Position numbers and translations under genes: made by a program. A stretch of DNA of 64,000 bases from Arenimonas sp. (GTDB taxonomy: Bacteria; Pseudomonadota; Gammaproteobacteria; Xanthomonadales; Xanthomonadaceae): contig JANPOU010000069.1 of the NCBI GenBank assembly GCA_031428155.1, positions 25,419 to 89,418 of the forward strand. Direction: 5' to 3'. Shown here piece after piece: positions 11,738 to 50,550 of this stretch. Each line of letters opens with the position of its first letter. The stretch's first letter is position 1. A model generated the notes under the pieces. It did no database searches and was not told the origin of the DNA. It worked only from the letters and a program-made list of their open reading frames with translations.

Positions 11738-13087
11738 TCAGTACTTTAATCCGCTTACTTGAAAAGGAATGTTGGCATGGCCTGCGTGGCCCTTGCCGTC
11801 ATAAACATAGACGAACAGACGAAAATTCCCCACTATTGTGGGCGCTTTGAATTGAATGTGGCCATTACCTAAGTCGGTTATCTCGGAAGTAATGATAGCG
11901 GGGGCGTCTTCATAATCACCGCCAACACTTTTCGCGCTACTTTCTTGCATTACAAGCCAACGAAAAGTGAGCGAGTCTTGGTCAGCATCAAGTGCGTGGA
12001 TGCGCGCATTATAGATTTTCCCTGCATCTAACTTAACGTTACTATTCGCTTGGCGCGAGTCAATCTGCAATTCAGAAATGGCGGGGCTTTGATTTGCAGG
12101 CCTAGTTCCAGTCCAAAGTTGATGCATGGTATCAACAGATGCGGTGGACTCACCCGATTCTAGAAATAAACTATACCAAGTAGGCGTACGTTCTTGTTTT
12201 TGACCCCAAAGAAAAACATACGAACCTAGGCATTGTCTTTGATCATTCAGAATATAGTTCCTATAGCGTTCACCAAGCAGATAGGCTTTTTGTGAGCTGT
12301 TATCCTCGATTGGCGCGCCCCAGTCGGTGACGGCAATTTCCCAATGTCCGGTCGGGCCCCATTCGGTCACCAGGTATGGCCCGGTCCAGTTGCTCTGGCG
12401 CAGGATTTCCGGAAGCCTGGCTATGTCGCCATACAGCTGGATGCCGATCAGATCGAGAGAGCCGGCACGGGATTTTAGTTGCGCGGCCAGTTCTGGATTA
12501 AAGCCGGCCAAGTTCGTCATGGTCGGATGGTTCGGATCAAGCTGATGAATCATTTCTGAAATCTGATTGACCGCGTCCCAGACTTTGGGATTGTCGGCGC
12601 CCAGATTGAGTTCATTGCCTATCGCCCACATCAGCAGAGCAGGGTGATCCTTGTAAAGCAGGATCTCGGTTTTGATACGTTCAAGCTGGAGTGCAACCTG
12701 CAGGGGATCGTCATAATCGAATCCGCCGCGCTCGCCTGCAACATGCAAGCCCATGGTGACATACAGGCCATTGGCCTGCGCACGGTCCAACACAGCTTGG
12801 CCGGTTTCCAGGCCGTTATCGGTGCGCCAAGTGCGGAATGAATTACCACCCTGTCGAGCAAGAGCTTCTTGGTTACCGAATTCAAGGCCGGCACCTTTGA
12901 CGTAAAACGGCTTGCCATCAACAAGCAATTGATAGCTGTTGCCGGCTTTAAGTACGCGTACATTGCTTGGACCTGGCTGCGCGCCAAGTAATCTGTCTTG
13001 CTCGGCGTGCACATGCCCTGCGGTCAGGTAAACGAGTAGAGTGGCTAAGATAAATCCCTGCACTCGTCTGTCCTGTCTAAATGTCAA
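11738..13087 (-). CDS. Secreted clan GH-A glycoside hydrolase, probably GH158-like endo-beta-1,3-glucanase
   Basis: Signal peptide; WAIGNE (E159, acid/base) and VTEWG (E242, nucleophile); beta-rich C-terminal Ig-like domain; context with GH3, GluP and TBDR. Confidence 0.7.
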   Translation of the reverse strand: MTFRQDRRVQGFILATLLVYLTAGHVHAEQDRLLGAQPGPSNVRVLKAGNSYQLLVDGKPFYVKGAGLEFGNQEALARQGGNSFRTWRTDNGLETGQAVLDRAQANGLYVTMGLHVAGERGGFDYDDPLQVALQLERIKTEILLYKDHPALLMWAIGNELNLGADNPKVWDAVNQISEMIHQLDPNHPTMTNLAGFNPELAAQLKSRAGSLDLIGIQLYGDIARLPEILRQSNWTGPYLVTEWGPTGHWEIAVTDWGAPIEDNSSQKAYLLGERYRNYILNDQRQCLGSYVFLWGQKQERTPTWYSLFLESGESTASVDTMHQLWTGTRPANQSPAISELQIDSRQANSNVKLDAGKIYNARIHALDADQDSLTFRWLVMQESSAKSVGGDYEDAPAIITSEITDLGNGHIQFKAPTIVGNFRLFVYVYDGKGHAGHANIPFQVSGLKY

Positions 13088-40955: not shown

Positions 40956-41067
40956 GGCAGTATTGTGGCATAAAATGTTACATAAATACCCAATGCTGAA
41001 ATTATTCACAGCTTGCTAAATTGCACCTAACAAGCGATGCTAAAGCCATCTGCATTGAGTATATATT

Positions 41068-42033
41068 ATGGACCGCTACGACCGCATTTTTGCCTTGCAT
41101 AGTCGGCTTAAAGCCGCGCGTTACCCGATAACCGGCGCTATTTTGCAGGATGAACTGAATTGTTCACGCGCTACGTTGTATCGCGATATTGCATTCCTTC
41201 GCGATGCCTTGCACGCACCGATTGACAGCCATGATGAAGCGGGTTTTTCGTACAACAAAACAGAATCCGAGCAATTTGAATTGCCTGGGCTGTGGTTTAG
41301 CTCCGACGAATTGCATGCCTTGGTTGCCACGCAAGAATTATTGAATCGTAGCGGTTCGGATGTGCTTGGCCCGGCCTTGCAACCGCTTCGAAAACGCATT
41401 GATGGATTACTCGCGCAGCAAAGCAATGGCAAGCGCTGGCCGGTTGAGCGGGTTCGGGTGATTGGTTCCTATACCCGCAAACGCGACGAGCTGAGTTTTC
41501 GGCAAGTAGCGGGTTCGGTGCTTGAACGTAAGAGTATTCGCTTTGATTATAAGGCCCGCTCAACCGATCAATTAACTACGCGAACGGTATCGCCGCAGCG
41601 CTTAACGCATTACCGCGATAATTGGTATTTGGATGCCTATGATCATGAGCGCGATGCCTTGCGCAGTTTTTCGATTGACCGCATCAGCCATGTGCATGTG
41701 CTTGAGCAAGACGCTAAAGACATTAACGAGCATGAGCTTACCGAGCAATTAGCCGATAGCTACGGAATTTTTTCTGGCAAGGCGCGTTCCATGGCAACCA
41801 TTGTGTTCTCCGCCGAAGCCGCGCGCTGGGTATCTGACGAGCATTGGCATTCTCGCCAAGAAGGGCGTTTCTTGAGCGATGGCCGTTATGAGCTGAAAGT
41901 GCCGTATAGCAACCCGCGCGAATTACTGATGGATATTTTGCGTTATGGCGCCGATGCGCAAATTATTGATCCAGTTTCCCTGCGTGAAAAAGCAAAAATG
42001 AGCTTGCAATTGGCTTTAGCAAGTTATAACTAA
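41068..42033 (+). CDS. HTH-WYL-WCX transcriptional regulator (YafY/PafB/DriD-like)
   Basis: N-terminal wHTH (SRATLYRDIAFLR), RTVSPQRL, NWYLDAY, RSFSIDRI, C-terminal WCX (ILRYGADAQIIDP). Confidence 0.93.
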   Translation: MDRYDRIFALHSRLKAARYPITGAILQDELNCSRATLYRDIAFLRDALHAPIDSHDEAGFSYNKTESEQFELPGLWFSSDELHALVATQELLNRSGSDVLGPALQPLRKRIDGLLAQQSNGKRWPVERVRVIGSYTRKRDELSFRQVAGSVLERKSIRFDYKARSTDQLTTRTVSPQRLTHYRDNWYLDAYDHERDALRSFSIDRISHVHVLEQDAKDINEHELTEQLADSYGIFSGKARSMATIVFSAEAARWVSDEHWHSRQEGRFLSDGRYELKVPYSNPRELLMDILRYGADAQIIDPVSLREKAKMSLQLALASYN

Positions 42034-42054
42034 TCGGCGTGTTTTGAATAGAAA

Positions 42055-42612
42055 TTATTTTGAAGATGGAAGCTGCCCTGTGGTTTGTGGCACGCGTTGC
42101 AATTTGGCTGGGTCGTAGCCATACAGCCTAAATTTTTCACTCAGTTGCTTAAGTTCGGCATCGCTCATCATTTGCTTGCGTGAAAACACCCAAGCCATTG
42201 AACGGCCCGGATTGCCGATAAGCGCCCATTGGTAATCAGGCGATACCTCTAAAATCAATAACTGAGAGCGGATTAAGCCACCCCAAAAACGCACTTGCCA
42301 ATGGTTATTGTTGGTTCCAGGGTACACGCGCGCTTCAGCCTGCATTTGTTGCTCGGGCTGGTTGAAGGCTTTTCGGTAAGCAAACACATTATCAATTTTG
42401 CCATCGGGCTTTAATGCATACACATCAGCCGTGGCAACTTTACCATTTTCTGCAAAATACGGAATGTTGGCAATCACCCACCAGCGGCCCATGTAGCGCT
42501 CAAGATCTATATTCGCCTTGCTGGTTAGTGGTGGTGTTTTACCGGTATTGGCGAAACTATAGGCTGTAAGCGCTAGGCTAATAATAATAACGGCAGCGAT
42601 TAGTTTGCTCAT
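42055..42612 (-). CDS. Lipocalin family protein (Blc-like)
   Basis: DLERYMGRWWVIA, DYQWALIG, WVFSR; signal peptide without a lipobox Cys. Confidence 0.87.
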   Translation of the reverse strand: MSKLIAAVIIISLALTAYSFANTGKTPPLTSKANIDLERYMGRWWVIANIPYFAENGKVATADVYALKPDGKIDNVFAYRKAFNQPEQQMQAEARVYPGTNNNHWQVRFWGGLIRSQLLILEVSPDYQWALIGNPGRSMAWVFSRKQMMSDAELKQLSEKFRLYGYDPAKLQRVPQTTGQLPSSK

Positions 42613-42676
42613 AATATGCTCCTTTTAATAGACATAGTATGCGCGTTTGCATTTGAAGATGGCGTCAATATTTGAA

Positions 42677-42708
42677 TCTCAGGATTTGAGAAAAGCAGCG
42701 GCCATACT
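42677..42708 (+). promoter_or_regulatory. Palindromic regulator site TCTCA-N5-TGAGA plus -10 CATACT upstream of the 92-aa gene
   Basis: Palindrome 42677-42691; TGAGAA (42687-92), 10 bp, CATACT (42703-08). Confidence 0.6.
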
Positions 42709-42734
42709 TATTTCAACATCAATTAGGAGGTTCT

Positions 42735-43013
42735 ATGAACACACAGATTATCAGTCGACTTTTGTGGCAAATCCCAGTTCTGGTTTTTCTTGTGGCATGC
42801 CTAACTCCTAGTGTTTCTTGGGATTCGAGCACTTTCGGGCTTTGGCCGGTTTGGTTACTGAGTATTCCGCTTCTAGCATTCACAAGGCACGTATTGCTTA
42901 ATAACGAAAAGAAAATCGACATATATAGTATGAAAAGCGTGCAACTGCTTGTATTTAATCGGAAGAAACCAGTGGACAGAAAAGCATCGCAGAAAACTCG
43001 TCAAGCAGCGTAA
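42735..43013 (+). CDS. Small 2-TM membrane protein with basic tail ending in -QAA
   Basis: Strong RBS AGGAGG; two hydrophobic segments; tail RKKPVDRKASQKTRQAA. Confidence 0.75.
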   Translation: MNTQIISRLLWQIPVLVFLVACLTPSVSWDSSTFGLWPVWLLSIPLLAFTRHVLLNNEKKIDIYSMKSVQLLVFNRKKPVDRKASQKTRQAA

Positions 43014-49653: not shown

Positions 49654-50550
49654 ATGGCCGATGTGGCTTCCGGCATTGAGCAGTTTTTACAGCATATGCG
49701 CTTTGAACGGCAGGCTTCAATACACACATTAAGCAGTTATCAACGCGATTTGGCGGCCTGGCAAGTATATTGCCAAAGCAATGCCTTGCTAGATCCCAAT
49801 GCCGCGCAATTCAGCCATGTTCAGCAGTTTATGGCGCAGGAGCACCGCCGCGGCTTAGCGCCGAAAAGTGTGCAGCGCAGGCTTTCTGCACTGCGAAGCT
49901 TGTTCAAGTATTTATTGAAACAAGGCGCCATGAGCCACAACCCAAGCCAAGGTTTGCGTGCACCGAAAGCGCCGCGTAAATTGCCGCAAGTATTAGATGT
50001 GGATGAAGCGGTGCGCTTAGTGGAGCTACCAACCGATGGCGTGCTTGGCGTTCGCGATCGTGCCATGTTGGAACTACTGTATTCGTCTGGCTTGCGGGTA
50101 TCGGAGCTTTGCTCTCTCACTTGGCGAGATCTGGATTTAGACGATTGTTTAGTAACTGTGCTCGGCAAAGGCAATAAAACACGGGTTGTGCCGGTGGGAA
50201 GCCACGCCATTAGCGCCTTGCATGCCTTGCGCAAACAAGCAGGTGCGGCAAATACCGCGCCAGTTTTTCCAGGCCGTGCTGGTGCGTTTATCAGCACGCG
50301 CGCCATTCAATTACGCATGCGCCAATTGGCGCAAAAGCAGGGTATTTGGAAACGGGTGTATCCGCATTTATTGCGCCACTCGTTTGCTAGCCATATGTTG
50401 GAATCGTCAGGCGATTTACGCAGTGTGCAGGAACTACTCGGCCACGCCGATATTGCCACCACACAAATTTACACCCACCTCGATTTTCAGCGCTTAGCCA
50501 CGGTGTACGACGCCGCGCATCCGCGCGCGAAACGGAAGAAAGAATCATGA
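49654..50550 (+). CDS. xerC: Tyrosine recombinase XerC
   Basis: RDRAMLELLYSSGLR, GKGNK, PHLLRHSFASH, VQELLGH, TTQIYTH; dapF-yigA-xerC context. Confidence 0.95.
   Translation: MADVASGIEQFLQHMRFERQASIHTLSSYQRDLAAWQVYCQSNALLDPNAAQFSHVQQFMAQEHRRGLAPKSVQRRLSALRSLFKYLLKQGAMSHNPSQGLRAPKAPRKLPQVLDVDEAVRLVELPTDGVLGVRDRAMLELLYSSGLRVSELCSLTWRDLDLDDCLVTVLGKGNKTRVVPVGSHAISALHALRKQAGAANTAPVFPGRAGAFISTRAIQLRMRQLAQKQGIWKRVYPHLLRHSFASHMLESSGDLRSVQELLGHADIATTQIYTHLDFQRLATVYDAAHPRAKRKKES

Follow-up and report, generated by a model that had tools for sequence, protein, structure and literature searches.

Responses to DNA damage that are independent of LexA and run by WYL activators sensing single-stranded DNA (ssDNA) are established in Actinobacteria, in Caulobacter and, since 2025-26, in Acinetobacter, and proteins of the winged helix-turn-helix (wHTH)-WYL-WCX architecture are known to dimerise. 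Here we describe a further predicted response of this kind in the order of Xanthomonas, Stenotrophomonas, Lysobacter and Xylella. It was found in a 64,000-nucleotide stretch of DNA (hereafter, the window) from a metagenome-assembled genome (MAG) of Arenimonas (Lysobacteraceae; 2.1 Mb, 85% complete), in which a gene for a wHTH-WYL-WCX transcription factor of 321 amino acids (aa) lies at 41068..42033 (plus strand) and a gene for a 92-aa small protein, preceded by a palindromic box, at 42735..43013 (plus strand). Judged by sequence and by analogy, the reading that fits this module best is a DdaA/DriD-type system of Xanthomonadales. An earlier note on this DNA had proposed a LexA-independent module analogous to DriD/DidA of Caulobacter and composed of the WYL regulator, a lipocalin and the small membrane protein. 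The kind of system stood up to comparison, and the operator proved to be common to repair genes, distinct from the LexA box and linked to the WYL gene; the lipocalin part did not hold, and the nearest characterised analogue is DdaA/AciT instead (PMC12392091, PMC13010146). No paper describing such a system in Xanthomonadales, including the Xanthomonas-Stenotrophomonas-Lysobacter group, was found.

Comparison with described WYL systems

In Acinetobacter, homodimers of the WYL activator DdaA (UniProt A0A7U9PMQ2) recognise CGWCA-N5-TGWCG (Song et al. 2025, PMC12392091; Ellison et al. 2026, PMC13010146). Genes under its positive control are recA, ssb, uvrA, radical-SAM and TIGR03915 genes, cas genes and aciT (PMC12392091, PMC13010146), as well as restriction-modification genes (PMC12392091), and its homologues outside Moraxellaceae appear to regulate assorted genes beside their own locus (PMC12392091). 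AciT is a small membrane protein with three predicted transmembrane (TM) helices (Naidu et al. 2021, PMC8316044) and acts as a damage-induced division inhibitor (PMC13010146). The locus in the window shares with DdaA a gammaproteobacterial wHTH-WYL-WCX protein, a small residue in place of the first beta4 arginine of the WYL domain, and a 15-bp palindromic box of 5-N5-5 layout with a CA-N5-TG core. Its predicted targets likewise comprise repair genes, including radical-SAM genes of repair type, and a small membrane protein, and relatives of the regulator appear to regulate cas genes. The predicted targets also include a gene beside the regulator's own, as with DdaA homologues outside Moraxellaceae. 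Orthology to DdaA itself may be suggested, indirectly, by the layout of the box, the beta4 substitution and the cas-adjacent relatives. The outer half-site bases differ, being TCTCA here (GCTCA in other orders) as opposed to CGWCA; when the DdaA box itself was tried as the operator in this genome, it was rejected, with 2 forward matches versus 11 in the control. Unlike the Moraxellaceae, in which LexA was lost, this genome retains LexA and a LexA box, and its recA is not controlled by a box of the WYL type. Unlike AciT, the small protein has two predicted TM segments, has no detectable similarity to AciT, and is encoded next to the regulator gene.

DriD of Caulobacter crescentus is a homodimeric, ssDNA-sensing WYL activator that is SOS-independent and coexists with LexA (PMC4211646, PMC9186387, PMC10853764, PMC13004042), and DidA is a small membrane division inhibitor in this WYL damage regulon (PMC4211646). 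DriD promoters have no -35 element; the DriD site overlaps where a -35 would lie, and its distance from the -10 is fixed (PMC13004042). The promoters described below share these features. However, DriD is distant in sequence (E 1e-6), its box is CGAC-N7-GTCG, didA is not located beside driD, and no homology between the small proteins was detected. PafBC of mycobacteria, which gave the best PDB match (1.7e-17), is activated by ssDNA, controls most damage-induced genes without LexA, and uses an element centred at -26 in promoters without a -35 (PMC6789036, PMC11804915); only one of its HTHs contacts DNA, and it does not bind DNA without RNA polymerase (PMC6789036, PMC11804915). PafBC consists of two WYL proteins, as a heterodimer or a fusion, and its element is non-palindromic, whereas a single gene and a palindromic site are present here. 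CapW and BrxR share the domain architecture, palindromic operators beside their own gene and ssDNA sensing (PMC11662680). They repress adjacent CBASS or BREX operons, the regulator lying directly upstream of the anti-phage system, whereas the window has no defence system, the genes around the WYL gene being soeABC-like genes, a lipocalin gene, the small open reading frame (ORF) and S9 peptidase genes, and the promoter architecture favours activation.

A conserved operator with fixed promoter spacing

The palindrome noticed earlier upstream of the small gene is TCTCA-GGATT-TGAGA at 42677..42691 (plus strand), with arms of only 5 bp, which are too short for an inverted-repeat finder at seed 6. 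We predict it to be an operator on the basis of its conservation before the small gene, where it spans about -38 to -24. TCTCR-N5-TGAGA was kept at this place in 9 of 9 aligned Arenimonas genomes, with the 5-nt spacer and the flanks varying freely. Upstream sequence was then read at 20 of the small-gene loci detected across the order, belonging to families f1, f2, f3, f4, f8, f11 and f12 (f1-f12 are family labels within the order; f1 is the family that includes Arenimonas), and almost all of them had the box or a near variant. The consensus form occurred in f3, f4, f8 and f12, TCGCA-N5-TGAGA in other f1 genera, and TCGCA-N5-TGCGA in one f2 genome.

The distance from the box to the -10 was also constrained. 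At 16 small-gene loci the promoter-proximal half-site was followed by 11 nt and then by a hexamer of the form (C/G)AnnnT, a weak -10 that reads CAGGCT or CAGACT in GC-rich relatives. The -10-like hexamer of the window, CATACT (42703..42708, plus strand), lies exactly 11 nt past the operator, and the same spacing recurs at non-orthologous promoters. No -35 could be aligned upstream of the small gene, and a scan for consensus sigma-70 promoters gave no match there. Transcription of the small gene is predicted to start near 42715, ahead of an AGGAGG ribosome-binding site read directly from the sequence (42725..42730, plus strand) and an ATG 4 nt later. On this cis evidence, the region has both the 15-bp palindromic operator of DdaA/DriD-type activators and their promoter layout, i.e., an operator over the -35 position, a fixed distance to the -10 and no -35 (cf. 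PMC13004042).

The significance of the operator lies in its conservation and position and not in its count in the window. By shuffling, TCTCR-N5-TGAGA is expected 0.11 times per window, and one match was observed besides the palindrome (read on both strands); this match, at 50115..50129 (minus strand), falls within an ORF (49654..50550, plus strand), has no -10 at N11 and is probably due to chance. Counts of the bare 15-mer against a reversed-pattern control were unreliable, and enrichment was not used as evidence because composition alone gives the observed counts in mid-GC genomes and some genomes without a WYL gene look enriched as well.

Genes preceded by the box

An oriented scan of the genome for TCTCR-N5-TGAGA-N11-NAnnnT detected five perfect sites, all five located 6-43 nt before an ORF start. 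The genes behind them, as assigned by Pfam, are the small ORF, a Y-family polymerase gene (IMS, IMS_C), recC, rmuC and a PF06189 5'-nucleotidase gene. Several of these sites are conserved: that of the polymerase gene was kept in seven more Arenimonas genomes with five different spacers, that of recC in three more genomes (N11, then CATGAT or CATTCT), and that of rmuC in one more.

The 15-mer was also searched in Stenotrophomonas maltophilia, Lysobacter enzymogenes, a Xanthomonas, a Pseudoxanthomonas and A. maotaiensis, where it precedes repair-type genes. These genes, named by eye from their N-termini and not by family search, included umuD, a Y-family polymerase gene, two radical-SAM genes of repair type, rmuC, a patatin gene, and a DEAD-box helicase gene that is orthologous in three genera. 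The patatin gene of S. maltophilia (L156) has the box with N11-CATACT. Taken together with the analogy to described regulons, these cis elements indicate that the small gene is very probably part of a non-LexA regulon of the repair type.

In a family outside the order (G119; L260, L255), sites of the TCTCA-N5-TGAGA type precede a HIRAN-domain ORF and an RmuC-like ORF, and the limits of the repair-type regulon may lie slightly outside the order.

The box travels with the WYL gene

In the order-wide survey of 101 genomes, the WYL orthologue was detected in 99; in the class-wide survey, it was present in 40 of 151 families. No conclusion drawn here depends on the unpublished genome G082. Of the 40 other genomes in which the small gene was found, 18, belonging to families f1, f2, f3 and f8, have it with its box at most 2 kb downstream of the WYL gene and in the same orientation. 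Depending on the genome, nothing, a lipocalin gene or an alpha/beta hydrolase gene lies between the two. The earlier note had made its proposal conditional on conservation of the small gene near WYL homologues, and such conservation is what we observed; of the synteny that it proposed to examine across the order, the adjacency of WYL and small gene was present in these four families, and that of the lipocalin gene in f1 only. In addition, one Lysobacteraceae MAG has the box within the promoter of the WYL gene itself.

A similar arrangement with different cargo was observed in family f7. At six of its seven loci (L234, L236, L233, L235, L237 and L040), the WYL stop codon is followed by a perfect TCTCA-N5-TGAGA and then by a different small ORF; the profile of the small-protein family (alignment A2, described below) gave no homologue in f7. 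The one translated in full, from G242, encodes a tail-anchored protein of about 70 aa whose only hydrophobic segment is C-terminal, and f7 may have acquired a small membrane effector at this position by independent recruitment. One of these genomes (G216; L234, after about position 1700) also has a long (GA)n microsatellite just downstream of the post-WYL small ORF.

The linkage extends beyond the order. WYL orthologues with 37-48% identity were fetched from 20 other gammaproteobacterial orders. The exact Xanthomonadales box was absent near these class-level orthologues; a relaxed search for xxxCA-N5-TGxxx then gave GCTCA-N5-TGAGC. Perfect copies of this box were present at eight of the orthologues, within about 110 bp past the stop codon or within 190 bp before the start, and close variants at five more orthologues of other orders, when about 0.006 perfect copies are expected by chance in the zones searched. 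The core CTCA-N5-TGAG is identical between the box of the window and those of other orders. The gene behind the box varies among orders and may be cas3, cas1, a PRiA4_ORF3-like gene, a small membrane ORF or the regulator itself. The regulator is tied to the box because the operator travels with the WYL gene whatever its cargo, and this co-travel is the strongest computational link between the WYL orthologue group and the box.

At three of these loci (L198, L204 and L210; G074, G077 and G163), GCTCA-N5-TGAGC or GGTCA/TGTCA variants stand directly before cas3 or cas1, a placement suggestive of control of CRISPR-Cas loci by this regulator family in the lineages concerned.

Two genomes of the order, the Xylella-like G247 and G040, have no intact WYL gene, and the small gene was likewise not detected in them. 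In G247 (L187) the WYL gene is a pseudogene with several in-frame stops and 42.6% identity when read through; this looks like a co-loss of the WYL gene and the small gene in a reduced genome.

The WYL regulator and the proposed circuit

The earlier note had described a complete wHTH-WYL-WCX regulator, and three Pfam domains were indeed matched in the ORF at 41068..42033: HTH_11 at residues 6-58 (E 8e-11), WYL at 144-211 (8e-21) and WCX at 243-314 (6.5e-15). PDB sequence matches were to PafBC, PafC (7.9e-13), PafB and, more weakly, DriD. R172, Y187, R199 and R205 align with R181, Y196, R208 and R214 of PafB, and are invariant or nearly so across 16 orthologues; these PafB residues are needed for ssDNA binding (PMC11804915). 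PafB R211, the first beta4 arginine, corresponds to Ser202 in the window protein and to Ser or Ala in orthologues, and in DdaA this arginine is replaced by alanine (PMC12392091). We consider it likely, and with good confidence, that the WYL protein regulates the box-bearing genes, and fairly likely that it does so as an activator of their promoters; that ssDNA is the activating signal seems somewhat more probable than the contrary, given the conserved residues and the described relatives.

We propose the following circuit. The WYL gene would encode a homodimeric wHTH-WYL-WCX activator of the DdaA/DriD type, and the dimer would bind TCTCR-N5-TGAGA in place of a -35, exactly 11 bp upstream of a weak -10. 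DNA damage would generate ssDNA, upon which the activator would bring RNA polymerase to otherwise silent promoters, namely those of the 92-aa protein, the Y-family translesion polymerase, recC (presumably with recBD), rmuC and the 5'-nucleotidase. The small membrane protein would be the effector; our best guess is a damage-induced brake on division or envelope growth, comparable to AciT and DidA and possibly short-lived through its C-terminal -AA. The box, its spacing, the gene set and the linkage to the WYL gene are shown by comparison of genomes, and we infer binding, activation, the ssDNA signal and the function of the effector from these and from characterised systems. As a whole, this explanation is moderately probable.

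Several observations weigh against it. The genome contains 8 sites of the 15-mer and about 8 are expected, given its intermediate GC content. Across the class, counts of the 15-mer do not follow the presence of the WYL gene, and a genome without it (G141) has 15 versus 1 in the control. The Xylella-like G247 keeps 13 copies, mostly in coding sequence or without the -10 spacing. One genome (G038) has the small gene with its box and no WYL match; it is in 280 contigs, and the WYL gene is present in a congener (G205). In the window, the promoter of the WYL gene itself lacks a box, and the helicase promoters of Stenotrophomonas and Xanthomonas have no clean N11/-10 arrangement. Finally, no similarity of the small protein to known division inhibitors was detected with family libraries or the family profile, AciT and DidA not having been compared directly.

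The small membrane protein

Hydropathy and the family alignment (A2) give the 92-aa protein two predicted TM segments, in agreement with the earlier note, at about aa 9-27 and 33-50, joined by a short loop without positive charge. The tail is basic (11 K/R versus 3 D/E) and ends in -QAA, and the protein is predicted to reside in the inner membrane with the tail in the cytoplasm. A C-terminal -AA recurs in many, but not all, members of the family; by analogy with such tags, it may act as a degron of the ClpXP type. The protein belongs to no Pfam, NCBIfam or PADLOC family. It was suspected to be a genus-level orphan, since a search with the single sequence matched only within the genus, but this was rejected when a profile built from box-associated ORFs (A2) picked up family members in 41 of the 101 genomes of the order. 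The same profile gave no matches in 149 other gammaproteobacterial families, a sample in which the presence of Moraxellaceae is unconfirmed, and the family appears restricted to the order.

The small size and the predicted inner-membrane location are those of damage-induced division inhibitors, and control by the regulator is read from the cis element. That the 92-aa protein inhibits division is nonetheless doubtful on present sequence and analogy. It is a serious, if still minority, possibility that the circuit operates as proposed and that the protein is instead a TisB/DinQ-like depolarising toxin, a membrane tether or feedback factor, or an envelope or lipid stress factor acting with the lipocalin. 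Consistent with such functions, no homology was found to AciT, DidA, SidA or SulA in the searches mentioned above, two TM segments are combined with a strongly basic tail, the divergent pairing with a lipocalin gene is kept in several f1 genera in which the WYL gene is 45-50 kb away, and in f7 this place is taken by another, tail-anchored ORF. On the other hand, a role in division is favoured by analogy, as small membrane division inhibitors, namely DidA (PMC4211646) and AciT (PMC13010146), are part of the characterised WYL damage regulons, and SulA was not found in this genome at 85% completeness.

Activation, repression and other assignments

The same regulon could also be under a repressor of the CapW/BrxR type, sitting on the palindrome and released by ssDNA. 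RNA polymerase could be blocked by occupancy of a palindrome at -38 to -24, ssDNA-sensing WYL homodimers that act as repressors are established (PMC11662680), and the orthologues in other orders adjoin cas genes, as do defence-associated WYL repressors. However, the promoters combine a weak -10 with the lack of a -35 and would therefore be nearly silent without help, the exact N11 at non-orthologous promoters implies a geometric constraint with RNA polymerase, and DdaA and DriD, which in box layout are the closest of the characterised relatives, act as activators (PMC12392091, PMC13004042). Repression is improbable on these grounds, and activation remains the preferred mode.

It is more improbable still that the box is bound by another regulator, with adjacency to the WYL gene reflecting shared ancestry and the WYL protein acting elsewhere, e.g., on the soeABC-like operon or the patatin gene. 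Such an assignment would agree with the class-wide 15-mer counts, which are uncorrelated with WYL presence, with the patatin gene that directly follows the WYL gene in some relatives, and with the soeA-like gene, which is divergent from the WYL gene and only 58 bp from it. Yet the box follows the WYL gene in five families of the order and in at least eight other orders; because its cargo there is unrelated, synteny by descent cannot account for the linkage. Control of soeABC by the WYL protein was considered separately and rejected. The adjacency is confined to the genus, as is that of the lipocalin and peptidase genes, relatives have an extra gene in between, and the 58-bp intergenic region (41010..41067, between the divergent genes), read directly, has neither an inverted repeat nor TCTCR-N5-TGAGA. 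For binding at the soeA promoter, which the earlier note had named as evidence against its proposal, that region holds no box.

Least probable is a module serving mainly as an anti-phage or foreign-DNA response and not DNA repair, an idea prompted by the activation of CRISPR-Cas and restriction-modification genes by DdaA (PMC12392091) and by the box before cas3 or cas1 in other orders, since the box-bearing genes here are repair or recombination genes and the small ORF, and no anti-phage system adjoins the WYL gene, at which PADLOC yields generic WYL models alone.

LexA and the wider regulon

In this genome lexA and recA are in tandem, and TTAGTAGTATTACTACTAA, which we take to be a LexA box of the Xanthomonad type (TTAG-N6-TACTA type), is located upstream of lexA. 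A genome scan with the simple pattern TTAG-N6-TACTA, which weak LexA sites may escape, gave no convincing copy besides that of lexA-recA, and in particular none before the small ORF, the Y-family polymerase gene, recC or rmuC. Little other than lexA-recA appears to be left under LexA control.

These observations allow a broader and tentative reading, which we place a little short of an even call: that across Xanthomonadales a WYL activator of the DdaA family took over much of the SOS regulon through a box at -31, including translesion polymerases or umuDC, RecBCD, RmuC, repair helicases and radical-SAM genes, that LexA was left with little beyond lexA-recA, and that the two-TM family represents new damage-induced division inhibitors. 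If so, published maps of the SOS regulon for this group would be incomplete, and a regulator other than LexA would govern how mutagenic polymerases are induced in these bacteria. The prediction supplies an explicit operator and promoter geometry, together with a candidate regulon and a putative small membrane effector. The occurrence of the CTCA-N5-TGAG box beside its own WYL gene in many orders of Gammaproteobacteria gives a simple way of locating direct targets of these regulators.

Outside the window, the LexA box at lexA is common to a divergent 699-aa ORF (contig C25, about 12485-12600). Its N-terminus, KAFISYSHSD..., looks by eye like a TIR domain, and the product is a possible LexA-controlled TIR protein.

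Neighbouring genes

Divergent from the WYL gene and 58 bp upstream of it is a soeABC-like molybdopterin oxidoreductase operon, and two S9 prolyl oligopeptidase genes (Pfam) are located downstream of the small ORF. A Lipocalin_2 gene (42055..42612, minus strand; Pfam E 2.6e-36) lies between the WYL gene and the small gene, convergent with the former and divergent from the latter, as had been reported. Its product has a signal-like N-terminal segment without a lipobox cysteine, and the NCBIfam Blc score is 58 versus a cut-off of 267. GTCAAT at 42664..42669 (TTGAC on the minus strand) is conserved in eight Arenimonas genomes at a varying distance of 4-9 nt from the palindrome, and is probably the -35 of the lipocalin gene's own promoter. 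When the box is read toward the lipocalin gene, there is no N11/-10 arrangement, and the lipocalin is absent from the module in families f2, f3, f4, f8 and f12. The lipocalin is a family-level neighbour and not an established member of the circuit, in which the earlier note had placed it.

In some relatives, an RssA-like patatin phospholipase gene directly follows the WYL gene (L042:7975-8895 in G016; L046, L032), and a gene for a secreted protein of about 195 aa is oriented divergently to it; the window has neither gene. Longest-ORF calls chose antisense frames in GC-rich relatives and were used only to spot these two neighbours.

A further palindrome, TCTCAAAATTTGAGA, located between mraZ and an NRDE-family gene, was considered as a member of the regulon and rejected, as it lacks the N11/-10 geometry and is absent in Arenimonas; five genomes from Stenotrophomonas, Xanthomonas and related genera have it conserved. 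A conserved TCTCAAAAT(T/C)TGAGA, also between mraZ and an NRDE-family gene and likewise without N11/-10 geometry, is located some 220 bp upstream of mraZ (L226, L227 and L228; G272, S. maltophilia and Xanthomonas), and this site adjoins TGTGGATAA, a DnaA-box-like sequence.

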